Positions 1-12,677 of a stretch of DNA of 12,677 nt are shown piece after piece. Position 1 is the stretch's first letter. Each line of letters opens with the position of its first letter. The notes beneath the pieces are model-generated. The model was given only the letters and a program-made list of their open reading frames with translations. It did no database searches and was not told the origin of the DNA. This DNA is from Candidatus Hodarchaeota archaeon (lineage in GTDB: Archaea > Asgardarchaeota > Heimdallarchaeia > Hodarchaeales > Hodarchaeaceae), in contig JAEOTQ010000149.1 in assembly GCA_016839785.1 (NCBI GenBank), positions 1 through 12,677 on the forward strand. Reading direction: 5' to 3'. The position numbers and the translations under genes are program-made.

Positions 1-57
1 AATTAACTCTTTCTGTTGTTCATAATATAATTTTAACTGATCACTTGAGTCCGTCAT
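1..57 (-). CDS. 5' end of a CDS running off the left edge (MTDSSDQLKLYYEQQKELI...), function unknown
   Basis: ATG at 57 on the minus strand opens 19 stop-free codons to the window edge. GGTGA (minus strand, 69..65) lies 7 nt upstream and an in-frame TGA lies just further upstream. Not in the ORF track because it is truncated. Confidence 0.6.
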   Translation of the reverse strand, partial: MTDSSDQLKLYYEQQKELI

Positions 58-351
58 CTCATATTCACCAAGAATTCATGATTTAATTGGGTGCGAAACT
101 CTTAAATTCGCTTATAATAAGGAAGATTCTCATTCCAAGTGTTTCTATGAATATTTAGTATTTTTTATACCAATCTACGCAAATAAGACTGTTTTTAATA
201 GCTTATCTCTTACTAAGTGATTGAAGATCTTTTTAGATTTTTCCAAGGTAGGAAACCTATGATGAATGTGTCATGACTTTTAAAAATAGAAGAATGGTTA
301 ATTGAGATAACCCCTTTCAATTTTTTTTATGACACTAACAGAGTTGAATAT

Positions 352-870
352 ATGGACTTTTTTGAAACCATCATTAAAAATAAGAGATATAATTCTTTCC
401 AGTCAGAAGAATCTCTTAATCATGATCAACTAAAACAATTACTAGCTTGTGCTCAGTTGGCTCCCTCTCTGAGTGACATTCAGAACTTCGCATATATAAT
501 CGTGACTGATCCCAGTTTAAAATCGGTAATTTCTGAAAAAATTGCGAACAATAAAATAGATATTATTAATGCGGCAGTGATATTTGCTGTTGTTGTCGTG
601 CGTGATGAAAAAGACGATAAAAATATTATTGATGCAATAATTGCAAGTAATCAATTGATGCTGGCCGCTACATCAATAAATTTGGGAACGAATCTAATAG
701 TTGATTTTGACGAATCTGTTGAAGAAATACTAGGACTTACTGCGGAATTGTCCATTGTCGGGTTGATTCCAGTTGGCATAGCAGTAGATAAAGGGCATCA
801 GGGCCTGAAACGATCTATAGTTGATTTGGCCTTCCATAATTCAATAAATACTAGATTTAGTTTTGATTGA
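352..870 (+). CDS. Nitroreductase-family (FMN-binding fold) protein with degenerate motifs
   Basis: N-terminal 'TIIKNKRYNSF...LKQLLACAQLAPSLSDIQNFAYIIVTD' follows the family pattern I..RRSxR.F...L..Il.aA..APS..N.QPW.FivV.D. Later 'DAIIASNQLMLAATSINLGT' and 'ILGL...GLIPVG' match the family core. Confidence 0.85.
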   Translation: MDFFETIIKNKRYNSFQSEESLNHDQLKQLLACAQLAPSLSDIQNFAYIIVTDPSLKSVISEKIANNKIDIINAAVIFAVVVVRDEKDDKNIIDAIIASNQLMLAATSINLGTNLIVDFDESVEEILGLTAELSIVGLIPVGIAVDKGHQGLKRSIVDLAFHNSINTRFSFD

Positions 871-1301
871 TTTTATCAATTGTATGCGGGGAAATCATCC
901 TGGTTCAAAAACGTCATTTTCTTATCGTCAAAATTGAAGATGAATATTTTTCGATAGAGTCAGAAGTTATTGATTCAATAGAAGATTACAACAATGTCAT
1001 TTTCAATGAAGATATGAGTGAATGCCTTACAGGAAATTTAACTGACTGGAATGACGGATTAAATGTCCTTAAAACGAGTAAAAACAATAATTTAAATGAA
1101 ATAGGAGATAATGAAAAAAAATTAGCACGCCTGGTTATTCTAAATGAGAAAAAGAAGAAAATACGAATAGCCCTGTTTGTGAATTCCATCTTAGGTGTAG
1201 TTACAAACTCCGAGGAAGGTAAGAGATTGATTAGTCAGCTTTATTTGGTGAAGAAGGCTAGACTGTCAAGATTTGATATTACAAATGTTTTTATTACATA
1301 A
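867..1301 (+). CDS. CheW-like domain protein (divergent)
   Basis: 'HFLIVKIEDEYFSIESEVIDSI' resembles the CheW N-terminal strands and 'LVILNE...IALFVNSILGVV' resembles the CheW 'iiv....GLlVD.V.gV' motif. The TTG start overlaps the upstream TGA stop (TTGA); the true start is uncertain. Confidence 0.6.
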   Translation: MILSIVCGEIILVQKRHFLIVKIEDEYFSIESEVIDSIEDYNNVIFNEDMSECLTGNLTDWNDGLNVLKTSKNNNLNEIGDNEKKLARLVILNEKKKKIRIALFVNSILGVVTNSEEGKRLISQLYLVKKARLSRFDITNVFIT

Positions 1302-1339
1302 TCTTCTACTACGAACTATATACAGAGGGTCTTATCGTC

Positions 1340-2791
1340 TTGGAAATTAGACAGACGAAAGTTTTTTGCTTTTTTGAAAAAATGAAAGATCTAGAATCTT
1401 TCTTTCTTAGTGATCTCGCCCAATCTGATATTCTACGATGTATTTTTTCAATTAGCGCGGAAGGAAAAGCGCCTGTAGGATTTCAAGCACAAATAATGGA
1501 AAAATATGACGTAGAACTTCTAGAAATACCTTCTAAAAGACGGATAAAAACATTTCAACCTTTACTAATGGAAAAAATGAATCTTTGTCTTTCTAACGTC
1601 CCGAAATCATCACAGGGGATTCATATTTTTCTTGACTATTTAAATGTAAAATTACCTACAAAACAAATATTGACTATTATTGACTCTTTTGAATCCTTTC
1701 TCATTAAAAATGACTTCCAGTATACTATCTATGCAATTTTTAGTGAGAAACAAGTATCAAAACAGCAATCCCGACAGTTAGTTGTAACATTTCCATATAT
1801 ATGCCTCTCTCCATCTCAAATCTACCCAAACTTCTTCTATGATGATGGTTCTAAGAAAAAGTTTCCAGAATCACTTAGAGAGTTATATCAACCTATAGAG
1901 ATTCTAATAAAGGAAGTAAAAGCAGAAAAACTCGAAATAGAAAGATTAGAAAAGGAATATTTTCAAATATCAACTCAACGCAACATTTTAGAATCAACAC
2001 TTTCATTTTATTCCGCCCAAGAGGAATCATCCAGTAATTCCAATGGAGTTCCCGCAGATTTAATCTCATTAATGGAATTTCATTCTCTAAAACAAAAATA
2101 CAATCAAAAAACCCAAATCCTTTCAACGGTCATCCATGATTTAAAATCTCCATTGGCATCGATTCAGGGTTATTCAGAAGTTATTCTTCATGGAATGTCT
2201 GGACCTATTACTCCAGAAATTAAAAAACAACTTGGAACCATCATAACCAATACACAACGTCTCGCTCGCATGGTTGACAGTCTCCTTGAGTTCGAACAGT
2301 ATGATCGCTCAACTTACATCGCAGAAAGAGAGACATTTGATCTAATTACAGTACTCGAAGATGCTAAAATGGCGGTTCTTCCTCAGATGATACATAGGGG
2401 TCAAAAAATATCTTATTTTGTCCCAGAATCATTAGAAATAGTAGCAAACAAAGAATTAATTGTAAGAGCCTTACAAAATCTACTGGATAACTCAATTAAA
2501 TATTCTCCTCAGGAAAGAGGCCATGTAGAAGTATATGTGGAGGAGAAAAAAGCAGGAAAGCGGAACATAGTAATAATTACAATTCGTGACAACGGTTTTG
2601 GTTTCCGGAAAGCTGATTTAAAAAGAATTTTTCAACCATTCTCTCGATTCGAGACACATTCCAAATCTACAGGTTTAGGATTGTCTATTACAAAAAAAAT
2701 TATTGAAGAAATTCATGGGGGAAAAATCAGCATAGAATCTCCCGGCAGAAATAGAGGGAGTTCTGTAAAAATTATATTGCCCAAGACGTAG
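1340..2791 (+). CDS. Soluble sensor histidine kinase (HisKA + HATPase_c) with an N-terminal MEDS-like domain and coiled-coil linker
   Basis: H-box 'STVIHDLKSPLASIQGY' (H266), N-box 'ALQNLLDNSIKY', G1 'IRDNGFGF', F-box 'IFQPFSR', G2 'STGLGLSITKKII..HGGKI'. No obvious transmembrane segment. TTG start. Confidence 0.93.
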   Translation: MEIRQTKVFCFFEKMKDLESFFLSDLAQSDILRCIFSISAEGKAPVGFQAQIMEKYDVELLEIPSKRRIKTFQPLLMEKMNLCLSNVPKSSQGIHIFLDYLNVKLPTKQILTIIDSFESFLIKNDFQYTIYAIFSEKQVSKQQSRQLVVTFPYICLSPSQIYPNFFYDDGSKKKFPESLRELYQPIEILIKEVKAEKLEIERLEKEYFQISTQRNILESTLSFYSAQEESSSNSNGVPADLISLMEFHSLKQKYNQKTQILSTVIHDLKSPLASIQGYSEVILHGMSGPITPEIKKQLGTIITNTQRLARMVDSLLEFEQYDRSTYIAERETFDLITVLEDAKMAVLPQMIHRGQKISYFVPESLEIVANKELIVRALQNLLDNSIKYSPQERGHVEVYVEEKKAGKRNIVIITIRDNGFGFRKADLKRIFQPFSRFETHSKSTGLGLSITKKIIEEIHGGKISIESPGRNRGSSVKIILPKT

Positions 2792-2876
2792 CAAAGTAAG
2801 TTACAGAAGTGAAGATAATAGGGAAATAACCTAATCCTTAAAAAAGATCAAAATAATTCTTGGATGGGATAAATAA

Positions 2877-3209
2877 ATGACAGGAAATCCTCTAAAACAA
2901 CTCGAACAAGAGTACATTCTTCTTATACTTCAGTACTTACATTTGAATCCCCGAGGGAAAACTTTTAGTCAGATATGTGCATCAATCGAACACGATGCAA
3001 ACCCTAAAAAAGTCACAGCTAGCCTTAAAACCCTTTCTTCAATTGGACTAGTTTATGAGATTAAAACTGAAGATAATACAGAAATACTGTACGTATTATC
3101 AAATCGGGGGCGTTATGCAAGTGAGATTGTTTGGGATCTATTTCGTATTATTCTTAACCCACATGAGACTGATGAGGACGATCCTGGGCTACTAGATTTC
3201 TATCGCTAA
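2877..3209 (+). CDS. Winged helix-turn-helix protein (HxlR/ArsR/MarR-like), probable transcriptional regulator
   Basis: 'ILLILQYL...GKTFSQICASI...NPKKVTASLKTLSSIGLVYE......ILYVLSNRGR' follows the wHTH pattern ending in Y.LT..G. Confidence 0.8.
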   Translation: MTGNPLKQLEQEYILLILQYLHLNPRGKTFSQICASIEHDANPKKVTASLKTLSSIGLVYEIKTEDNTEILYVLSNRGRYASEIVWDLFRIILNPHETDEDDPGLLDFYR

Positions 3210-3319
3210 TTAATTTTAGGAGATATCTTCTTTTCTGGGAAAAATTCCTTTATCTTGTACTATCATTTTCCAGAATTCGCTTAAACAAAGATATTAACAA
3301 TAGCTCTACTCTGTGCATT

Positions 3320-4321
3320 ATGTCTTTTGCAGATCCAAAAATGCAAGCGCTGTTAAAAAAGCAGAAATACCAAATATCAGGAAAAAATACGGCTGTTAAG
3401 AAATGTAGGTGGACTCATAATTCGTTACGAGAAGATAGGTATTGTTATAAGCATTTTTACGGCATCAAATCACACCAATGTATTCAATTTTCACCAGTAT
3501 TAATTTGTAACTTTCTCTGTAAATTCTGTTGGCGAATACATGAATCTGATATTGGGGTTGAAAACATGTTCAGAAATTATGATCCACAGGATCAGGAAAA
3601 TCTGAAAGAAATTTTTGACTCCCCTAAAGATGTTGTAGATGCTTTGTTCGTGAGCCAACAGAAAATTATATGCGGTTACAAACCCTACGTTGCATCACAG
3701 AAATACGATGAAGCAATGAATCCGAAACATGCGACATTGAGTTTGACGGGAGAACCATTTCTTTATCCATGGATCCCAGAATTAATTCAGGAGTTAAAAA
3801 AACGAGAATTGACTGTTTTCATCGTTACTAATGGGAGCGTGCCTAGTACATTACAATCAATATTAGAAAAGCGAGCATATCCAACTCAATTGTACATCAC
3901 TCTTCCTACACCTGGAGTAGAAAATTTCCTAAAAGTACATAGACCTCTTGAGAAGGAAAAAGCCTTAGAAAATATTTATAAAAGTTTAAGGATAATAGGA
4001 AAAGGTGTACCTTTTCGTACAGTTGCGCGGTTAACTGTGGCTGAAGGATTGAATCTTATCGATCCAGAAGGGTATACAGAAATGATAAGTGGTATGATGA
4101 AACCATCTTTTATTGAAGTGAAGGGAGTAGTACATGTAGGAGCAGCTGAAAAACGATTACCACGTACAGCAATGCCCACACATTCTAGAATTGTGAATTT
4201 CGCCAAACAACTTGAAAAATTGACTGGATATAAAATCGTTGCAGAATCTGAAGTTAGTCGATTGGTTATATTATCTAATGAAACTGCTCCCCTGTTGATA
4301 CCTGATTTGAGTAGAGAATAG
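3320..4321 (+). CDS. taw1: 4-demethylwyosine synthase Taw1/TYW1 (radical SAM tRNA-Phe modification enzyme)
   Basis: Radical SAM motif CNFLCKFC followed by WR. Family-specific 'AVKKCRWT', 'CYKHFYGIKSHQCIQFSP', 'PKHATLSLTGEP', 'FIVTNG', 'PTQLYITL', 'FIEVKG' and 'MPTH'. No flavodoxin domain, so it is the archaeal form. Confidence 0.95.
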   Translation: MSFADPKMQALLKKQKYQISGKNTAVKKCRWTHNSLREDRYCYKHFYGIKSHQCIQFSPVLICNFLCKFCWRIHESDIGVENMFRNYDPQDQENLKEIFDSPKDVVDALFVSQQKIICGYKPYVASQKYDEAMNPKHATLSLTGEPFLYPWIPELIQELKKRELTVFIVTNGSVPSTLQSILEKRAYPTQLYITLPTPGVENFLKVHRPLEKEKALENIYKSLRIIGKGVPFRTVARLTVAEGLNLIDPEGYTEMISGMMKPSFIEVKGVVHVGAAEKRLPRTAMPTHSRIVNFAKQLEKLTGYKIVAESEVSRLVILSNETAPLLIPDLSRE

Positions 4322-4475
4322 CGATACAATTCTAATGTTACTCTGAATCCTGTTGTTATTTCGTAAAGCTACTATTGACCAAATAATTCAAATCCACCAA
4401 ATCTATTACTTTTCGAATACTTTTTTAGGAGGATACAGAAAAAGATAAACTAAGGTATGAAAAGGGGAATTACTC

Positions 4476-4679
4476 ATGAAGTTAGCTGAAAAAACCATCG
4501 ATTCTACAACTGGCCTTAAGATGAAATCTGGTGCAATAGTTGAAGTACATGTCATTCATAGCGAGAACAGCGATGAAAAAAGCTTAATGATAAAAACCGA
4601 TGACGGAGTTCTCTCCCTTGATCAAGATGATATCTATAGTTTCATGGACCTCTTTAGTAAGTTCTTAGAAAGCTTTTAA
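4476..4679 (+). CDS. Small hypothetical protein (67 aa; predicted beta strands plus a C-terminal amphipathic helix)
   Basis: ATG preceded by purine-rich AAGGGGA. Fills the gap in a plus-strand gene run and resembles the N-terminus of the next gene. Confidence 0.75.
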   Translation: MKLAEKTIDSTTGLKMKSGAIVEVHVIHSENSDEKSLMIKTDDGVLSLDQDDIYSFMDLFSKFLESF

Positions 4680-4699
4680 TTATTTAGGATTGATAGATT

Positions 4700-5689
4700 A
4701 TGGATGTTGAGTACCAAAAAAAGGAAGTAACTTGGTGTTTAGATCGTGTTGGTCCAAGAATATGTCTAAAAGCAATCGCGATAAATGATAAACTTAAGCA
4801 ACTCGAAATGACGAGTGATGAATTCAAATTAACACTCGAAAATGATGAAGCTAGGGAATTTCTGGGAATCATTCAGAACATTGTATCTACGAAACCAGAA
4901 ACTATTCCTTTGCCTGTACCTGAAGCTGAACCGAGTCCTCTTGAGGAATTTATTGAGAAACCTATAGAAAAACCTATTGAAATAGCTGTTGAGACACCTG
5001 TAGAAGAATTTCTCCCAGTTCCAGAAACAAAAGAGGTTGAACCAAAAACTGCTATAAAACTTGATACTGCAGAAATTTTAGAAGTATTAAAACAGTCTGA
5101 AAGTAGTGTAGAAGAAGAGAGGATTTCTTTCAGGAAAAAGTTTGCAGAAAATGAAGCTCTTGCGAAGGAGACTACTCCGCAATTACAACCAGAACAGGAG
5201 ATAGAGGAATCAGAACTGGGTATTTCTATTGAAGAAAAAGTCAGACCTTCAGAGATTTTTAAAGAGAAATTAGATACAGCATCATTTTTCCGTGAAGTAG
5301 AAGAGAAATCCCCTCTTGAGCAGTTGCTAGAGGAAACAGAAGATCGTACTGAAGATTATACAACAGTAGATCCTCCAATGTCTGATACAAGGTCAGTATA
5401 TGAGGAAGAAGGAAGCTTACCAGAATCAGATTCTACAGTCCCCTTTAGTCCAGATGATCTGGATTCTTCTTCTTTCCTAAGTAAATTTAGTTCTAAACCA
5501 TTTGAACAGGAAATAGAAACTAAAAAAGAAGAATCGGTAGAAAATATAGTAGATCCTGATCTCAGTCAGCAGGATACTGAATCTGTTCAACAATCCGGCT
5601 TTCAAACCGAGGAAGATCGAAAAAAGGAAATCGAGCGAGAACGAGCGGCTAGAAAAAAGCGACTATGGGAGCTTACACGCGGTTTTTAA
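4700..5689 (+). CDS. Hypothetical protein: about 62-aa N-terminal globular domain, long acidic Glu/Pro/Ser-rich disordered region, basic C-terminal helix
   Basis: 329-codon ORF with AGGA upstream and strong Glu/Pro/Ser enrichment from about aa 63 to 300. Ends in 'EEDRKKEIERERAARKKRLWELTRGF'. Confidence 0.85.
   Translation: MDVEYQKKEVTWCLDRVGPRICLKAIAINDKLKQLEMTSDEFKLTLENDEAREFLGIIQNIVSTKPETIPLPVPEAEPSPLEEFIEKPIEKPIEIAVETPVEEFLPVPETKEVEPKTAIKLDTAEILEVLKQSESSVEEERISFRKKFAENEALAKETTPQLQPEQEIEESELGISIEEKVRPSEIFKEKLDTASFFREVEEKSPLEQLLEETEDRTEDYTTVDPPMSDTRSVYEEEGSLPESDSTVPFSPDDLDSSSFLSKFSSKPFEQEIETKKEESVENIVDPDLSQQDTESVQQSGFQTEEDRKKEIERERAARKKRLWELTRGF
4952..5011 (+). repeat. Degenerate 12-bp in-frame tandem repeat (IEKP IEKP IEIA VETP VEEF)
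   Basis: attgagaaacct / atagaaaaacct / attgaaatagct / gttgagacacct / gtagaagaattt, read directly from the sequence. Confidence 0.65.
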
Positions 5690-5737
5690 ACTTATTTTTA
5701 TTTAAGATTATTTTTTGATAGTTCTCAGTGATTTTAT

Positions 5738-6940
5738 ATGGTAGACTCTAATATTACAAAGCCAGATATTGCCATCGTTTGTCATGCATATCAGCCACCA
5801 AATCAAACCCCAGAGGTTTTGGAAAGGATTATCCATAATTGCTACTTGCCAGTAGCAAACATGTTAGAGGAAAATCCAGAGATAAAAATTACCCTGAACT
5901 TTAATGCGAGTCTCAGTGAAATACTCGAAAATGGATATTCAAACATTATTGAGAGGTACGCAAATCTAGCAAGAAACGGACAGGTAGAATTTCTGGAATC
6001 AGGTGCTTATCACCCAATTTTACCTTTACTATCAGAAAAAGAGGCTCGTTTCCAGATAACCTTGAATCACCAAATGAATTTAAGGATATTTGGTTCTGTT
6101 TGGCATCCAGTAGGTTTTTGGCCTCCTGAATTAGCGGTGTCACCGACATTACTAAACCAGATAGAAAACCTAGGGTATCAATATTCAATAGTGCCAGAAA
6201 TTTCTATTAGGTCAAATAGTAACCATCCTACCCCGCTATTTGAGAAAATACCAACCCATACTTCTGCTTCAAATCTAGCACTAATTTATAGGAATCGGGA
6301 ACTTTCAAATAATCTGTCATTTAAGCGATATCCAAATGTTAGCAATTTTATGGAGCATGTAAATCTTTTAAAAGCTAAACAACCCCAAAGATCGGTTCTT
6401 ATCATGGCTACGGATTTGGAAACATTCGGAGAACATCATGCGGGTTACGAAATATTTCTAAAACATATATTAGAAAAATCTACTGTTCATACAATCAAAG
6501 ATATATTGAATTATCCTCGTGACAGAATTGAGAAATTTAGCGAAAGTAGTTGGAGTACATCAGAAGAAGATCTTTATAGGAACATTCCGTACCCTCTTTG
6601 GGCGTTTCCTGGTAATTCAATTCATGAAATCTTGAATTTCCATTCTGACATTCTATCGGAAACACTTGATTTTCTCCTAAGATCCAAGGATGAGAGTATT
6701 TTTGAGGTACGTCAGGCGTTAAAGGAAGTAGCTAAGGCACAATACAGCTGTCAAACATGGTGGGCATCTGCAAAGGATCATTTCAGTAAGGATCTAATCT
6801 TAAAAGGATTCGAAGAACAGAAAAAAGCGTTAAATATTACTTTAAAGGCGATAGGATCTGATTATCCTAATTCGATAATAAAAGCAACTTCCAACAGGCT
6901 TGAAGAACGTTTAAAACGTTACTTACAAAGAATAATGTAA
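5738..6940 (+). CDS. Glycoside hydrolase family 57 protein (alpha-amylase/amylopullulanase-like)
   Basis: GH57 conserved regions: 'HAYQP', 'GQVEFLESGAYHPILPLL', 'GFWPPELAVS' (nucleophile Glu), 'ATDLETFGEH' (acid/base Asp) and 'AQYSCQTWW'. Confidence 0.92.
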   Translation: MVDSNITKPDIAIVCHAYQPPNQTPEVLERIIHNCYLPVANMLEENPEIKITLNFNASLSEILENGYSNIIERYANLARNGQVEFLESGAYHPILPLLSEKEARFQITLNHQMNLRIFGSVWHPVGFWPPELAVSPTLLNQIENLGYQYSIVPEISIRSNSNHPTPLFEKIPTHTSASNLALIYRNRELSNNLSFKRYPNVSNFMEHVNLLKAKQPQRSVLIMATDLETFGEHHAGYEIFLKHILEKSTVHTIKDILNYPRDRIEKFSESSWSTSEEDLYRNIPYPLWAFPGNSIHEILNFHSDILSETLDFLLRSKDESIFEVRQALKEVAKAQYSCQTWWASAKDHFSKDLILKGFEEQKKALNITLKAIGSDYPNSIIKATSNRLEERLKRYLQRIM

Positions 6941-6966
6941 GAAGCGTGAGGAAGGATTGCTTAAGA

Positions 6967-8349
6967 ATGTCTCAGAAAGAAACAGGTCTAAAACTACTGA
7001 GGTATCTAATAGATTATAAAACCGTTAATAATCCAGGAAAAGGTCAATTTCCTGATTCGAATGTAATATCTTTTGTACAAGAAAGCCTTCTTCACTGGAA
7101 CTCTGAAATAAAATCTAAAATTTTTGAAACAGAAAACTATTCATCCATATATATGGCGAGCGATTTAACTACTCCTAAGGATATTGTTTTTCTTGGGCAT
7201 CTTGATGTTGTTCCAGTTACAAGTGAGTGGGATTCTAATCCGTTCGAATTAACAATAAAAAACAAAGTATTGGGTTTTGGGAGAGGTTCCAAAGACTGCA
7301 AAGGGTCTGTTGTATCCGCTCTTTTATTTATAAAAAAGATAAATGTTAATCGTAAAACAGATTCGTTAGTAAATAGAATTGGTTTATTCCTTTCAACAGA
7401 TGAAGAAAGTGGAGGGCAATATGGTGCTAAGGAATTCTTTGAGTATGCGAAAGAAAACAGTATTCTTCCAAAGTACATAATTAACGTTGATGGAGGTCCA
7501 AAAGTAGTTTTCAAAAGACGAGCAGGATTTAACTTACGATTGAAAGCCCCACCATTAATTAAAAAAGCTACAGCGACCGTGAAAGAGGAGGAGTTTAGCA
7601 CTAGAATAATGTTCGATAATAATCGACATAGTGCTTATTTTGTACCAGGAGTAGATTCTCATGCTCTACTGTCATTATCTAAATATCTCCACATTAATTC
7701 TCATGTAAGAATAAGTGCAATTTCCGGGGAGTGGGTAAAAGGAAACGTGATCCCAAGCAAAGTACAAGCCAAAGTTTTGGATTCACGCGCCAAATCAAAT
7801 CTGAAACAACTATTCAGCTATGATGAGAATTTAACAAAAATACTACGCTTACTACGTAGGATTGTCTTAATAAACATAATTACGGAGAAACCAAGTGAAT
7901 TTGGGGTAACTGTGAATCCAAACATTTTAACATACTCTGCTACAAAAGGAACCGAGCTACAATTCGATGTTCGGGCTTTCCTATCGCCTAAAGATAAAGA
8001 ACAGCTAATAAGCGCAGTTAGTAATTGTATTGGAGACTTAGCTAGTCAATTCAAAATAGAATGTAGGGGTTCCTCTGGTTATTTCTATACCGATCCTTCT
8101 GATCCACTTGTCTTAACTTCGACCGAGGTCATGAAAGAATACAACTTAATGGATGAAGATGAACTTCCTAAAGAGCAAGAAGGAGCATCAGATGCCCGTT
8201 ATGCGACAATGTTTGGAGTACCTGCAATTGATATTGGTCCGAAAGGAGGAAATATTCATGGAGACAACGAGTATATAGACTTAGAGTCAATGATCCAATT
8301 TTCTTCTATCTATGAAGATATTGTAAGGAGATTACTGATCAAAGATTAA
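6967..8349 (+). CDS. M20/M25/M40 family metallo-hydrolase (ArgE/DapE-like peptidase or deacylase)
   Basis: Metal-binding and catalytic motifs 'GHLDVVP', 'GRGSKDCKG', 'TDEESGG', 'GASDARY' and 'GPKGGNIHGDNEYI'. I prefer the ATG at 6967, with purine-rich GAGGAAGG upstream, over the GTG at 6946. Confidence 0.92.
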   Translation: MSQKETGLKLLRYLIDYKTVNNPGKGQFPDSNVISFVQESLLHWNSEIKSKIFETENYSSIYMASDLTTPKDIVFLGHLDVVPVTSEWDSNPFELTIKNKVLGFGRGSKDCKGSVVSALLFIKKINVNRKTDSLVNRIGLFLSTDEESGGQYGAKEFFEYAKENSILPKYIINVDGGPKVVFKRRAGFNLRLKAPPLIKKATATVKEEEFSTRIMFDNNRHSAYFVPGVDSHALLSLSKYLHINSHVRISAISGEWVKGNVIPSKVQAKVLDSRAKSNLKQLFSYDENLTKILRLLRRIVLINIITEKPSEFGVTVNPNILTYSATKGTELQFDVRAFLSPKDKEQLISAVSNCIGDLASQFKIECRGSSGYFYTDPSDPLVLTSTEVMKEYNLMDEDELPKEQEGASDARYATMFGVPAIDIGPKGGNIHGDNEYIDLESMIQFSSIYEDIVRRLLIKD

Positions 8350-8526
8350 ATGGAAGAATACGGGTATTCAACTGAATTCTAACAAGTAAACTCTTCTTTA
8401 ATTGTTCTATCCTATGTTTCTGGCTATTGAGTTCATCTCAATTCATTCCCTAAATGGTATAACTCTCATCTAAAGAAATATCAATTGAACCTCATGTGTT
8501 GCTGTACTGCGAGTAAATGATTACCA

Positions 8527-9324
8527 ATGCCATTAGAAATTAATCAAATTTACAATATGGATTGCATTAAAGGCCTTGCTCAACTTGAGAAAGATTCAAT
8601 TGATCTTTTACTAACTGACCCTCCTTTCGGAATAGATTTTCATAAAGTTGGTACTCAATACAATAGAAAGCAGAAAGAGCTTGGTAAAATGTACCATGAA
8701 GTCTCTGCTGATGATTATTATGATTTTACCTTAAAATGGTTAAAAGGTTGTAGGGATATTATGAAACCCAGTGCAAGCGGGTTTATATTCAGCGGTTGGA
8801 ATCACCTGGGAGATATTTTGAACGCGTTGACAGAACTGGGCTTTCGTATCATCAATCACATAATCTGGAAATATCAATTCGGAGTGTTTACGAAACTTCG
8901 GTTTGTTACAAGCCATTATCATATTCTATATTTTACTAAATTGGGGGCGAAACAGGATAAATTACGGACATTTAATAGGGTACCAGAATATAGCAATTCC
9001 CCTGGCAAGCTTTATTTTGAAGATGTCTGGAGAATTAAAAGAGACTATCAGAAAGGTGGAGAGAAGACACCAACCCGCCTCCCTTTAGCAATCACAGATA
9101 AGTGCATTCGAATGGCGAGTAATAAGAGTGATGTTATACTAGAACCCTTTCTAGGGAGTGGGAGTGTCGTATTATCAGCAATTAAGTATGATCGCCAATT
9201 TTTCGGTTTTGAAATATCTGAAGAGATATATCGAATAGCTGAAAAGCGAATAAAGAACTTTAAAGTCGATCTGAGCTCTAAGGATTCAAGCTTAGATTTC
9301 TGGTTAAGTGATAATGGGAAATGA
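8527..9324 (+). CDS. Site-specific DNA amino-methyltransferase (N6-adenine/N4-cytosine), beta class, apparently orphan
   Basis: 'MDCIKGL...DSIDLLLTDPPF' (motif IV, DPPF variant) precedes the SAM-binding motif I 'VILEPFLGSGS', followed by 'FFGFEI'. 'IIWKY' and 'DVWRI' are also typical of this family. Confidence 0.93.
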   Translation: MPLEINQIYNMDCIKGLAQLEKDSIDLLLTDPPFGIDFHKVGTQYNRKQKELGKMYHEVSADDYYDFTLKWLKGCRDIMKPSASGFIFSGWNHLGDILNALTELGFRIINHIIWKYQFGVFTKLRFVTSHYHILYFTKLGAKQDKLRTFNRVPEYSNSPGKLYFEDVWRIKRDYQKGGEKTPTRLPLAITDKCIRMASNKSDVILEPFLGSGSVVLSAIKYDRQFFGFEISEEIYRIAEKRIKNFKVDLSSKDSSLDFWLSDNGK

Positions 9325-9387
9325 TTCTTTAATTGTTCAGAAAACGAATTGATAAGTAATTTAAAGGATTAAAATGCTCATACCTCG

Positions 9388-10419
9388 GTGGTAAATATGG
9401 TTTTCTTAATTACTGGCGGTACAGGCTTAGTGGGGAGTTTTTTACTAGAGAAAATAGCCTCTGATCCTTCCTTAAACGAAATAGGTTGCCGTGTCATAGT
9501 ACGTAATGCTGAAGGTAAGAAGAAAGTTGAAAAGCTTGGATTAAATCCGATAAAAGCCGATTTAAATGATATTTCTAGCTTGAAAATAGCAATTAAAGAT
9601 GTTACTTCAGTTATCCATCTAGCAGCTAGAGCTGATGATTGGGCGTCTTGGAAAGAGCTTTACAGGGCCAATGTGGAAGGTATAGAAAATTTAGTCTCAG
9701 TTTGTCATAGTGCTAACACTGATCCTTTTATATCTCACACAAGTTCTACAGGAGTATATGGCCATTATATTCCTAGTACACCAATTACTGAGACTTATCG
9801 ATTTAATCCTACGAGTATATACCAAAAAAGCAAATATTTACAAGAAAAGTTTTTATGGAATCTTAAGGATCAGGAAGGATGGAATAATTTTAGTCTTGTA
9901 AGATCACCGAGTATAATCGGACCACGAGATACAAAAACGATAGGGGCCATATTTAAAGCAATATATGAGCATAAATTCCCGATATTAAGGGGAGGGGACA
10001 TGTATGCGACTTTTATTCATCCTTATGATCTTGTAATTGCATTGCTTCTGCTAGTGTCTAACAAATCACATTCAAAAGGACATGGATACAATATTAAATC
10101 TTTTGAATGTAAAATGATAGATTTCTTAGAAGAAATTGTAAACCTAGTTAATCCTTCAAAACCTCCTTCTCCGATGAATTATCGTGTTGTATATACCGTT
10201 GCTGTACTATCTGAACTTTTTTCCAAATTAACGGGTAGGAAAACCACTTTGAATAGGTATCGTGTAACCAAATTCGCGAGATCTCGGCGATACGATGATA
10301 CAAAAATAAAAACTGATCTGGGGTTCAATCCAGAAAAAAATATGAAAATTACACTGCAGGAGTCATATGATTGGTTAACTTCAAATGGACTTTTTCCCCC
10401 AAAACAGAAAGTGGAATAA
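9388..10419 (+). CDS. Extended SDR, NAD-dependent epimerase/dehydratase (3-beta-HSD-like)
   Basis: Rossmann motif 'LITGGTGLVG', plus 'VIHLAA', 'ANVEG', 'SSTGVYG', catalytic YxxxK 'YQKSK' and 'RSPSIIGPRD'. The start may be the ATG at 9397. Confidence 0.92.
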   Translation: MVNMVFLITGGTGLVGSFLLEKIASDPSLNEIGCRVIVRNAEGKKKVEKLGLNPIKADLNDISSLKIAIKDVTSVIHLAARADDWASWKELYRANVEGIENLVSVCHSANTDPFISHTSSTGVYGHYIPSTPITETYRFNPTSIYQKSKYLQEKFLWNLKDQEGWNNFSLVRSPSIIGPRDTKTIGAIFKAIYEHKFPILRGGDMYATFIHPYDLVIALLLLVSNKSHSKGHGYNIKSFECKMIDFLEEIVNLVNPSKPPSPMNYRVVYTVAVLSELFSKLTGRKTTLNRYRVTKFARSRRYDDTKIKTDLGFNPEKNMKITLQESYDWLTSNGLFPPKQKVE

Positions 10420-10537
10420 GGTCACTTTGCAGAAGTTCTCTTAGCCACAACAGGGAGGACTAAGACGGAGAATTTGTGAATATTTAGATATAAATAAAAA
10501 ACATAATTTTTCTAAACTGATTAAATCTAAATTCCCA

Positions 10538-11524
10538 ATGATATTCTTTGAAGGCATCCAGATGAGCGAAGAAAATCCAGATCCAATAATCAATGCTCGG
10601 ATACTTCTAGTTGAGGATTCAAAAGACCATCAGTTTCTGTTTGTGAACCGACTAAATAATCTTGGTATCAACAATATTACAATAAGCGAAACCGGAGAAC
10701 AGGCTGTTGATAAGATAAAGGGTGATCCAAATTATGACCTAATTTTGGTTGATTATAGTCTCCCAACTGGTCTTTCTGGTATTGATGTGATTCGCGAAAT
10801 TCGAAATCTAAACCCAGAAATACCGATAATAATGGTAACTGGTCTAGGTTCCGAACAAATTGCTGTACAAGCAATGAAATTAGGTATACAAGATTATATT
10901 ACTAAGGAAGATCTTCTCCAATCTGATCTTAAGGAAATAATTGTCCCCCTATTACTAGAACGAAAAATTTTACAGGAAACAGCTCTTGCTAAACGATTGA
11001 ACGCCGATCCAACCCAGTTGTCAATTTCTGTTTATAAATTTGGACAAGTAGGGCCAGAACCTTATCTTACCTCTCCCCTTCCATTTGAGAAAGCATTCGA
11101 ATCCGAGCAAATGCGAGAGAATTTTCTGGTAAAACTAGGGACACATTATATGTCAGCTACAGGAACAGGACACAACTATGCCCAAGGATTGTATGAACTC
11201 CCAGTACCGAGTCAGAGGGTTGATTTCGCCGTTGATACACAAAATGAGAAGGAACAACCTCTAAATCCATTTAGCAAATATCATAGTTTAGTTTATGGTT
11301 TCAGAATGACTGAAAAAGAACATTTCGATGAACGAATTAAGCTCAATAACTCATTGAATTATGGTTTAGTCGTTGTAATATTTCCAATACTCTACAGATC
11401 TATTTTACCAAATAGAGCGGTAATAGAAAGACGGTTGAAGGAATTATTAAGCGCCTATCAAGATATGGAAGAATTAGATCTAGAATTTATAAAACGAGCA
11501 CAAAACATTTTTTTCCTTTCATAA
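10538..11524 (+). CDS. Response regulator: N-terminal receiver domain plus an uncharacterised C-terminal alpha/beta domain (putative longin/uDENN-like)
   Basis: Intact receiver residues: 'ILLVED' acidic pocket, phosphoacceptor D72 in 'DLILVDYSLP', T101 in 'IMVTG' and K123 in 'DYITK'. The C-terminal ~170 aa match no standard output domain that I recognise. The start may be the ATG at 10562. Confidence 0.9.
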   Translation: MIFFEGIQMSEENPDPIINARILLVEDSKDHQFLFVNRLNNLGINNITISETGEQAVDKIKGDPNYDLILVDYSLPTGLSGIDVIREIRNLNPEIPIIMVTGLGSEQIAVQAMKLGIQDYITKEDLLQSDLKEIIVPLLLERKILQETALAKRLNADPTQLSISVYKFGQVGPEPYLTSPLPFEKAFESEQMRENFLVKLGTHYMSATGTGHNYAQGLYELPVPSQRVDFAVDTQNEKEQPLNPFSKYHSLVYGFRMTEKEHFDERIKLNNSLNYGLVVVIFPILYRSILPNRAVIERRLKELLSAYQDMEELDLEFIKRAQNIFFLS

Positions 11525-11539
11525 TGAGAGAATGACTAG

Positions 11540-12469
11540 CTACTGTTTCTCATCTATCAAATTCTGTTGTATACTCTGCAGGGAAGAGATTAATGCCAAT
11601 ATAATACTTTCTAAGTAGGTAAACGAGTTAATTAACTCTTTGTTTGATGCTTGTACACCTAAAATTGTTGATGATGGATCCTCGGATTTTAAAATCATAA
11701 AAAGTATTCCGTCCTCGCTTTCCGAATCGATTATGATGAGATTGGGTCGATTTTTCAAAAATTTTTCAAAAGGATCAATAAGAATACTGAAATCTATTAC
11801 TTTTTGATCAAAGATAGGAAGTTTAGAAATATCCCTCAGTTTACTTAAACTTGCTCCTGTTACGGAATGGGATATTAAATCTAATGAAACTTCTCTAGAT
11901 AAAATCACCAGTTCTTCATCTGTTAAAACAAGAGAAACATTTACACCACGTTGTTTGGCCTTTTCAAGTTCATCTTTAATTAATAGTACAAAAACAGGAA
12001 GCATATTTGTAAAAATCTTAGTTTTAGCTCCCTCAATATTTTTTTTCAATAGTCTGAAAATGTGATGTCTACCCTTGATAATCTGTACTTGATGAATTAG
12101 CTCTTCTTCGTTTCCTTCTTCCTCTAAACTATTTGAAATAAGGGTTAATTGATCCTGAACTCGTGTTGCTGCGTTCTCAATCGGTTCAGTTAGTTGTTTC
12201 TTTAGTATTAATGACAGTTTTTCAGGTTCGTATAAAAGGCTGTATACATTAGCTGATCCTGTTATTTCATCCATTTTAACAAGTTCTAACCCGATTAACG
12301 CTTCAAGAACTTGGTAAATTTTGTTTCGGGGTACTTGAGAAACAGAAACTAATTTTGAAGCTGGTAGTGAACGTCCTGATTTGACTAATGCTATAAGAAC
12401 TCTAGCTTCATACTCCTTTAGCCCCAAATGGACTAGATCTGATACCAAGGATTGTCCCAAACCTTCCAT
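11540..12469 (-). CDS. TrmB-family transcriptional regulator (N-terminal wHTH, C-terminal effector-binding domain)
   Basis: 'LGLKEYEARVLIALV...ASKLVSVSQVPRNKIYQVLEALIGLELV' is the TrmB HTH signature. 'IIKGRHHI...IEGAKTKI...ELEKAKQRGVNV' matches the start of the TrmB C-terminal domain. AGGAG lies at 12486..12482. Confidence 0.92.
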   Translation of the reverse strand: MEGLGQSLVSDLVHLGLKEYEARVLIALVKSGRSLPASKLVSVSQVPRNKIYQVLEALIGLELVKMDEITGSANVYSLLYEPEKLSLILKKQLTEPIENAATRVQDQLTLISNSLEEEGNEEELIHQVQIIKGRHHIFRLLKKNIEGAKTKIFTNMLPVFVLLIKDELEKAKQRGVNVSLVLTDEELVILSREVSLDLISHSVTGASLSKLRDISKLPIFDQKVIDFSILIDPFEKFLKNRPNLIIIDSESEDGILFMILKSEDPSSTILGVQASNKELINSFTYLESIILALISSLQSIQQNLIDEKQ

Positions 12470-12506
12470 AAGTCTAATTTTCTCCTAAAAATATACAACT
12501 TTTTGT

Positions 12507-12523
12507 TGTCACTACGAGTGGTG
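12507..12523. promoter_or_regulatory. Candidate TrmB-family operator 1 (TGTCAC-tacga-GTGGTG)
   Basis: 9/12 match to the Thermococcales glycolytic motif TATCAC-N5-GTGATA, with a perfect inner palindrome CACT-N3-AGTG. Confidence 0.45.
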
Positions 12524-12537
12524 ATGGGATGATAAGC

Positions 12538-12545
12538 CTTATAAA
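12538..12545 (-). promoter_or_regulatory. Candidate archaeal TATA box (TTTATAAG) for the TrmB-family gene
   Basis: Close to the TTTAWAWR consensus and about 70 nt upstream of the ATG. The core TTATAA is palindromic, so it could also serve a divergent gene. Confidence 0.5.
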
Positions 12546-12548
12546 TGT

Positions 12549-12565
12549 TACCACCCATGGTGAAA
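12549..12565. promoter_or_regulatory. Candidate TrmB-family operator 2 (TACCAC-ccatg-GTGAAA)
   Basis: 10/12 match to TATCAC-N5-GTGATA, lying immediately upstream of the candidate minus-strand TATA box (BRE position). Confidence 0.5.
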
Positions 12566-12677
12566 ACAGAAACAAAAGGAAGAGTCAAGGGATCTTTTAA
12601 AATATCGAATTCAACCTTGAGTGATATAAACCCATTGCGGAACTCCATATATACTAAATAGTGTTAAAAGATTCAAC

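Follow-up and report, generated by a model that had tools for sequence, protein, structure and literature searches.

Proteins in which an 'NPRL2-like longin domain' is fused to two-component signalling domains are reported from Asgard archaea by Liu et al. (bioRxiv 10.1101/2020.10.19.343400), who propose, in the part of that preprint available to us, that Asgard growth is regulated via two-component systems with 'eukaryotic' regulators. Here we analyse a gene of this kind, encoding a response regulator with a longin-like C-terminal domain, on a 12,677-nucleotide stretch of DNA from Candidatus Hodarchaeota archaeon (NCBI GenBank assembly GCA_016839785.1, contig JAEOTQ010000149.1, positions 1 to 12,677 of the forward strand; hereafter the window). 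An earlier, sequence-only reading had put the gene forward as an undescribed system. That claim fails, since longin-two-component fusions were already reported in 2020 by Liu et al., and the regulator falls in the same class: like their proteins, as the available part of the preprint describes them, it is of Asgard origin and joins a longin of the NPRL2/FLCN kind to two-component modules, although its family, unlike the 'NPRL2-like' name given there, yields no Pfam NPR2 match. A literature search on response regulator, longin and archaea returned no such fusion by title or abstract among the matches listed. The gene is a well-resolved new member of a published kind of fusion, with a putative role at GTPases; what is new here is a structural model of high confidence, counts of the motifs in members fused to a receiver, a Ras-longin fusion, paralogues in Rag operons and a clade with a degenerate phospho-acceptor.

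The eukaryotic complexes FLCN-FNIP2 (Lst7-Lst4), GATOR1 NPRL2-NPRL3 and C9orf72-SMCR8 share with the regulator a longin fold (structural-alignment Z 8.2-10.5), a glycine-proline (GP) turn and an arginine in the loop between strands 4 and 5. Unlike them, the regulator has neither a DENN or NPRL2 C-terminal domain nor a known heterodimer partner, its sequence-profile similarity to their families is not significant, and it is predicted to be controlled by its fused receiver, whereas the eukaryotic longin GTPase-activating proteins (GAPs) are controlled by nutrient-sensing complexes. Within the Asgard archaea, the dimeric Lokiarchaeota Roadblock-Longin protein (8yqg) is the best structural match, but its longin is fused to a roadblock domain rather than to a receiver, the identity is 14%, and a PDB sequence search with the family profile did not recover it at E <= 10. 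Heimdallarchaeial 'FLCN/SMCR8-type' longins come from the same lineage and carry the GP motif together with the arginine, the same pair in the same structural places as in the regulator, according to the part of PMC12290439 on which we draw, which makes no mention of response regulators or two-component systems. A functional analogy without homology is found in the Myxococcus MglA-MglB-RomR module, where, in the partial account used here, the receiver protein RomR and the roadblock-fold MglB control a small Ras-like GTPase; unlike in the regulator, receiver and roadblock are separate proteins there, the roadblock is not a longin fold, and the system is bacterial.

The gene and its parts, all on the forward strand, are laid out in the window as follows (aa, amino-acid residues; pLDDT, predicted local distance difference test).

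10538..11524 (+): response-regulator open reading frame (ORF), 328 aa plus stop, counted from the first ATG; supported by its translation and by 39 homologues whose C-terminal domains match at E <= 3e-49
10562..10564 (+): ATG at M9, where translation probably starts, from homologue starts and low pLDDT
10601..10909 (+): receiver (REC) domain, aa 22-124; Pfam PF00072, with strands and helices alternating in the model from E21-25 to E119-122
10751..10753 (+): D72 codon, for the aspartate predicted to be the phospho-acceptor, from the sequence and the homologue alignment
10931..11005 (+): long linker helix from receiver to longin, aa 132-156 (25 residues), in the full-length AlphaFold2 model
11018..11521 (+): longin-fold output domain, aa 161-328, from AlphaFold2, VIA-align and Foldseek
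11051..11056 (+): 'GP motif', G172-P173, in the turn joining strands 1 and 2, from alignments A1 and A2
11216..11260 (+): variable insertion loop between strands 3 and 4, aa 227-241, with pLDDT < 50 and absent from most homologues in A1 and A2
11327..11335 (+): D264-E265-R266, within the loop that connects strands 4 and 5, with R266 as candidate arginine finger, from A1, A2 and the model

The case for the longin fold begins with an AlphaFold2 model of residues 150-328, built from a 41-row alignment (A2) that includes distant relatives, which reached a mean pLDDT of 91.8 and a predicted template-modelling score (pTM) of 0.87. Its elements run strand-strand-helix-strand-strand-strand-helix-helix: strands 162-168 and 173-178 flank the GP turn, followed by a helix (190-210), a short strand (217-222), two strands (247-258 and 273-283) that enclose the loop with D264-E265-R266, and C-terminal helices at 284-289, 293-305 and 315-323. 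The published longin topology is a five-stranded sheet in this same order, without a roadblock-type N-terminal helix (PMC10933270), and the model fits it. The secondary structure that the sequence-only reading had assigned by eye agrees with the AlphaFold2 models, and the strings it quoted (SISVYKFGQVGPEPY, ENFLVKLGTHYMSA, GLYELPVP, YHSLVYGFRM, DER and YGLVVVIFP) are all found in the translation.

We compared the domain model with 48,161 representative chains using VIA-align, a tool whose typical best Z for unmatched models is 7-8, inspecting the best 50 rows and identifying matches by entry title. The search counted 8 chains at Z >= 8, and the leading matches were these.

8yqg_B: longin domain of the Lokiarchaeota Roadblock-Longin protein, Z 12.2, root-mean-square deviation (rmsd) 3.1 over 133 residues, 14% identity
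4zy8_C: Lst4 longin domain, Z 10.5
6nzd_H: FLCN-FNIP2-Rag-Ragulator entry, Z 9.8
7o2w_A: C9orf72-SMCR8 entry, Z 9.0
6ulg_N: FLCN-FNIP2 entry, Z 8.4
8adl_S: SEA complex, Z 8.3
8fw5_C: GATOR1, Z 8.2
2jkr_I and 9c58_S: AP2/AP3 adaptor entries, Z 8.2 and 8.1

Below these came Mon1-Ccz1 (Z 7.9), TRAPP (Z 7.8) and a DENND1A entry (Z 6.2), with roadblock chains at Z <= 6.7, under the longin rows. By title, 47 of the best 50 rows are longin- or roadblock-bearing proteins or complexes, and the three that could not be classified in this way are 9y6s_9g, 2gnx_A and 6oei_A. A Foldseek search of the PDB gave 8yqg_B as its sole match at E <= 0.001 (E 5e-4, TM 0.51/0.57); the next matches, at E 0.01-0.05, were chains from SEA, GATOR1 and FLCN complexes. 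We are therefore close to certain that the C-terminal domain has a longin fold, as had been proposed by eye, and in the model comparisons its closest class appears to be the FLCN/FNIP/SMCR8/NPRL group rather than uDENN. The accompanying 'uDENN-like' label is weak: beyond the low DENND1A score, the ORF stops at residue 328, directly after the longin helices, so that there is no core DENN domain, and the GP motif is absent from DENND proteins in the consulted part of PMC12290439. Since the rows from GATOR1 to the adaptins tie within 1 Z unit, the fold alone does not separate the classes.

Sequence databases returned little over this part of the protein. Residues ~150-328 gave no Pfam match at E <= 1, and Pfam run on 15 family members at E <= 10 likewise gave none; a Roadblock/LC7 (PF03259) assignment fails, with no Pfam match and with two to three C-terminal helices. 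An NCBIfam scan of the protein found receiver models only and nothing over the C-terminal domain, and a PDB search by sequence with that domain gave 0 matches. Family-profile matches in the PDB to plastocyanin (E 0.38) and Prp24 (E 0.95) are at chance level and were dismissed. In the Protein Atlas the best scores were 0.89, to unnamed Asgard clusters, with 0.83 for a cluster carrying Pfam NPR2 on 19% of its members and 0.79 for one carrying Robl_LC7 on 20%; because every score is < 0.9, these matches are leads only. A complex prediction for two copies of the longin domain scored 0.16 against a mark of 0.42, which speaks neither for nor against dimerisation.

The class of longin is addressed more directly by two motifs. 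In the 23 closer homologues of alignment A1, G172, P173, D264 and R266 are invariant (23/23), and in the 41 sequences of A2 they are conserved in 38, 38, 37 and 38, with P222 present in 41/41. As described in the part of PMC12290439 available to us, the GP motif stands at the start of strand 2, beside the catalytic arginine finger, in C9orf72, SMCR8, FLCN and NPRL2, and is missing from FNIP2, NPRL3, adaptins, TRAPP subunits and DENND proteins; the 'F....GP' turn picked out in the sequence-only reading matches this published motif of GAP-type longins. SMCR8 R147, the equivalent of FLCN R164, is placed in the longin bL4-bL5 loop by the portion of bioRxiv 10.1101/2020.04.16.045708 used here. R266 likewise lies in the loop between strands 4 and 5, a likeness to FLCN R164 that is topological, not atomic. 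In eukaryotic longin GAP complexes, the GP-turn and strand 4-5 loop arginine positions flank the catalytic pocket. We consider it probable that the domain belongs to this GP/Arg 'GAP-type' longin class.

At the other end of the protein, the Pfam Response_reg family (PF00072) matches aa 22-124 with E 1.9e-21 and 76.7 bits against a cut-off of 30.2. Receivers are recognised by an acidic pair after strand 1, a phospho-acceptor aspartate after strand 3, a threonine or serine after strand 4 and a lysine after strand 5. Here the full-length AlphaFold2 model places the five strands at 21-25, 46-50, 68-72, 97-101 and 119-122, and E26-D27, D72, T101 and K123 all occupy the expected positions, so the receiver is intact, as had been claimed. 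We infer that the linker helix serves dimerisation. Because the pTM of the full-length model is 0.61, the orientation of receiver to longin is undefined and no autoinhibition geometry can be read from it.

The ORF of 328 aa is present at 10538..11524 as first reported, and it is not a chance product, since 39 homologues from a word-indexed protein search share its C-terminal domain (E 4e-112 to 3e-49) and nine orthologous loci exist in other genomes. The closest homologues, at 84-86% identity, come from metagenome-assembled genomes (MAGs) named Candidatus Hodarchaeales/Hodarchaeota and Heimdallarchaeota. Translation probably begins eight codons after the annotated start, at M9, because homologues of 321-322 aa (P0003, P0004, P0006 and P0009) align their first residue with M9, and because residues 1-14 model poorly (pLDDT < 50, disordered in the full-length model). 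In one metatranscriptomic run, a 232-base contig covers 10715-10946 with 5 differences and two 151-base contigs fall on the upstream epimerase gene; since DNA can occur in such libraries, these contigs do not establish transcription, and uncovered stretches carry no information.

Receiver annotation by Pfam is found in 37 of the 39 homologues, the other two being 211 and 212 aa long, and all share >= 53% identity across the domain. When the domain only was used in an exhaustive HMMER search, 35 cluster representatives were reached at E <= 1e-3, of which 32 were scanned for Pfam architecture, leaving out fragments of 40, 48 and 107 aa.

Receiver: 8/32; two of these are REC-PAS, and one of the 8 is below cut-off
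PAS only: 5/32
GAF-PAS: 1/32
TPR: 3/32
No Pfam domain, 139-271 aa: 14/32
Unclear: 1/32

By its placement, the longin domain behaves as a signalling output module, because it lies C-terminal to the REC, PAS or GAF domains in 14 of the 15 relatives that bear them. P0054 (422 aa) has the reverse of the usual order, with the longin N-terminal (residues ~82-152 matched) and PAS after it. Across a phylum sample of 151 genomes, the profile (E <= 1e-5) matched all 27 other genomes of six same-genus or same-class families, with 1-8 copies each, and 6/123 genomes in the remaining 21 families.

Links to small GTPases appear among relatives of the domain. The genome of origin (G000; 4.04 Mb, 84.5% complete) contains 36 matches to the Gtr1_RagA model, 32 of them over the cut-off, along with 16 HisKA matches and four paralogous longin ORFs, two of which adjoin Gtr1/RagA-family GTPase genes. 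On contig C129 (10431-13895), a one-strand apparent operon holds a 180-aa RagA-C-terminal-like ORF, a 314-aa Gtr1/RagA-like gene (E 1.2e-5) whose P-loop region is degenerate, a longin paralogue of 268 aa that keeps GP and D-x-R, and a 310-aa Gtr1/RagA GTPase gene (E 1.2e-31), an arrangement that looks like a compact archaeal Rag-plus-longin module. On contig C41, a 346-aa longin paralogue is convergent with a Rag-like GTPase gene. In another genome (G054, contig C4, L098:995-2023), a single 342-aa ORF joins a Ras/Roc-family GTPase (Pfam Ras, E 5e-24) to a family longin, identified by hhalign at 96% and E 4.8e-9, with GP and D-E-R kept.

Several further loci bear on the same theme. An 11-kb cluster of the same genome (C8:28500-39500) interleaves Rag-like (467 aa), Arf-like (293 aa) and Ras-like (240 aa) GTPases with a pair of histidine kinases, one of 580 aa and the other PAS-rich and of 1015 aa, and a stand-alone 112-aa receiver, a second possible hint of two-component/GTPase wiring. 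On contig C230 (1-8500), a 438-aa protein matches Pfam Folliculin (PF11704) over the cut-off, at E 2.4e-6. It has GP and A-R-G motifs of its own, follows a 163-aa Roadblock/LC7 ORF, lies ~4 kb from a 322-aa Arf-family GTPase with a C-terminal extension, and has 72 homologues in Asgard MAGs, mostly of 420-440 aa. From sequence comparison, this protein and the regulator's longin appear to be separate families. Elsewhere (G089, contig C20, L100:2993-5200), a 735-aa ORF stands between a TPR-longin protein and a Rag-like GTPase, with a sub-threshold match to Adap_comp_sub, an adaptor-complex medium-subunit model (30.6 bits against a cut-off of 31.6).

Taking these observations together, the best explanation, which we hold at even odds, is that the protein is a response regulator whose output is a GAP-type longin of the FLCN, SMCR8, NPRL2 and C9orf72 class, coupling a phosphorelay to a small GTPase. 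In such a scheme, a histidine kinase would phosphorylate D72, altering the receiver and linker, most likely via dimerisation; the altered receiver and linker would assemble or expose a longin platform, which would bind a small GTPase from among the many (Rag-, Arf- or Ras-like) in the genome; and R266, as an arginine finger, would stimulate GTP hydrolysis by the bound GTPase, thereby coupling a His-Asp phosphorelay to a small-GTPase switch. The parts of this scheme differ in strength. That the longin protein regulates a small GTPase at all could equally well be true or false; that it acts as a GAP, rather than as an exchange factor for guanine nucleotides (GEF) or a platform, we put forward tentatively, as somewhat improbable; and the full phosphorylation-gated form, in which the activity of a GP/Arg-finger longin dimer on a Rag- or Arf-like GTPase would be turned on or off by a histidine kinase, we regard as unlikely.

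A number of observations weigh against the GAP-type output reading. The window has no small-GTPase gene adjoining the regulator, and the nine orthologous loci have none directly paired with it, only a DRG-type GTPase nearby. Of 51 family members in 10 other genomes, only 3, the fusion included, lie <=5 kb from a Gtr1_RagA match at E <= 1e-8, at most a weak enrichment, with fragmented assemblies limiting the count. None of 15 family members matches Pfam Folliculin (PF11704) or NPR2 (PF06218) at E <= 10, and genome scans with these two models at E <= 1 pick up other genes or nothing, and not the regulator gene. No sequence bridge to the Folliculin family could be established, hhalign of alignment A3 giving 2.7% against the C230 protein and 13% against a 17-row alignment of its family. 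Eukaryotic GAP longins are heterodimers of longin-DENN proteins, and the regulator is without a DENN domain or known partner. The sigma adaptins of AP2 and AP3 tie with GATOR1 in the structure search, and some longins regulate no GTPase.

The receiver also differs within the group. Among 21 aligned homologues covering the acceptor site, position 72 is Asp in 17 and Glu in 4, and in those four (P0012, P0017, P0018 and P0022 in A1, one of them with the source name Kariarchaeaceae) D27 is also replaced by Gly, so that phosphorylation control is not universal in the group. Two of the four also lack T101 and K123, while the longin GP and Arg stay invariant in the clade; its receiver may be a phosphorylation-independent pseudo-receiver.

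Several of these points favour instead a longin that serves as a protein-protein adaptor without GTPase contact, as in SNARE longins, sigma adaptins and SRX, with phosphorylation recruiting or releasing a partner of another sort, such as a membrane or trafficking-like factor. In the structure search the GATOR1/SEA rows lie no more than ~1 above sigma adaptins, the VAMP7 longin and TRAPP subunits, at Z 7-8, and the want of a linked GTPase gene at the regulator and its orthologues, like the rarity of Rag-like neighbours in the family, fits an adaptor. An adaptor fits poorly with the near-invariance of the GP motif and loop arginine, with the absence of the GP motif from adaptin, TRAPP and DENND longins (PMC12290439, in the part available), with the FLCN/Lst4/SMCR8 class as the best structural rows, and with the existence of a GTPase fusion and of paralogues in Rag operons; we judge the adaptor reading unlikely, at roughly a one-in-several prospect.

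A different possibility is that the regulator does act on a small GTPase, but as a GEF, effector or scaffold platform, the mode of most longin/roadblock dimers (Mon1-Ccz1, TRAPP, Ragulator). Mon1-Ccz1, TRAPP and DENND1A are indeed among the structural matches, at the scores given above; GAP-type longins nevertheless outrank GEF-type ones in that search, and the conserved GP turn is accompanied by a loop arginine at the FLCN/SMCR8 finger position, leaving this mode a minor contender.

The regulator might also act on its upstream neighbours or their pathway, with the longin binding a methylase-family protein or an NAD-dependent sugar epimerase. A related-locus search returned 80 loci, of which nine (L018-L026) span the full protein and 71 match the receiver only. 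The methylase-epimerase-regulator order on the same strand is kept in all nine, at 51-85% identity, while the outer flanks vary. The two neighbours are as follows.

8527-9324 (+): DNA-methylase-family gene, conserved upstream neighbour (Pfam)
9388-10419 (+): NAD-dependent epimerase gene, conserved upstream neighbour (Pfam)

All nine loci come from related Hodarchaeota/Heimdallarchaeota-type genomes, however, and the order may be no more than inherited synteny; the epimerase gene and the regulator are 118 bp apart, and PAS-, TPR- or GAF-partnered relatives of the domain sit in other contexts, so action on the neighbours seems improbable. Least credible of all, and in our view hardly tenable, is a C-terminal domain that serves as a small-molecule sensor of the PAS/GAF-like alpha/beta class rather than as an output: PAS, LOV and GAF chains do occur among the Foldseek matches at E 0.1-0.25, but with TM only ~0.3 and high rmsd, none appears by title among the top 45 VIA-align rows, and the domain occupies the C-terminal output position in the relatives counted above.

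In five orthologous loci checked by Pfam, a DRG-type GTPase (MMR_HSR1 plus extension plus TGS, ~392 aa) lies 0-4 genes downstream of the regulator, at the following positions.

L019:11817-12995: DRG-type GTPase (Pfam)
L022:9714-10892: DRG-type GTPase (Pfam)
L023:8012-9226: DRG-type GTPase (Pfam)
L024:6988-8163: DRG-type GTPase (Pfam)
L026:9750-10931: DRG-type GTPase (Pfam)

An equally sized ORF stands at the matching position in two further loci, and a dihydrouridine synthase often accompanies the GTPase; the window's contig ends short of that point. We take this linkage to be synteny that related genomes have inherited, rather than an operon.

The window itself contains, in order, a nitroreductase, a histidine kinase, an ArsR-like gene, a wyosine radical-SAM enzyme, an acidic 329-aa protein, a GH57 enzyme, an M20 peptidase, the methylase-family gene, the epimerase, the regulator and a convergent TrmB regulator. 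Two of these genes encode further signalling or regulatory proteins.

1340..2791 (+): histidine kinase, 483 aa, a possible phosphodonor by context and one of the genome's 16 HisKA matches; Pfam E 2.8e-12 for HisKA and 1.1e-23 for HATPase_c
11540..12469 (-): transcription regulator of the TrmB family, downstream of the response regulator and convergent with it; Pfam TrmB E 5.2e-12

The first ~250 residues of the kinase match no Pfam family. Just upstream of it, a 144-aa ORF (867-1301) without a Pfam match overlaps the nitroreductase stop by 4 bases. The protein at 4700-5689 is very acidic and rich in Glu, Pro and Ser, has no Pfam match, and is 60-64% identical to its counterparts in L018-L020 and 32% in L026. 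A TrmB homologue lies near the regulator in only two of the nine orthologous loci (L021 and L025), and no gene for a restriction enzyme was noticed next to the methylase gene in the window.

The value of this gene is as a tractable test case, not as the first discovery of its fusion type. Asgard archaea carry many small GTPases and longin/roadblock proteins, whose genes seldom share operons (PMC10933270), and a receiver-wired longin gives experimenters a handle that they can control: the protein should respond to BeF3-, acetyl phosphate or D72 variants by switching, and the GP turn and R266 define precise mutants for asking whether GAP-type longin chemistry predates eukaryotes. If the protein were indeed a phosphorylation-gated GAP, it would form a direct bridge from the prokaryotic His-Asp phosphorelay to the FLCN/GATOR1-type GTPase control of eukaryotic nutrient signalling, and such a bridge would persist in the archaeal lineage closest to eukaryotes.

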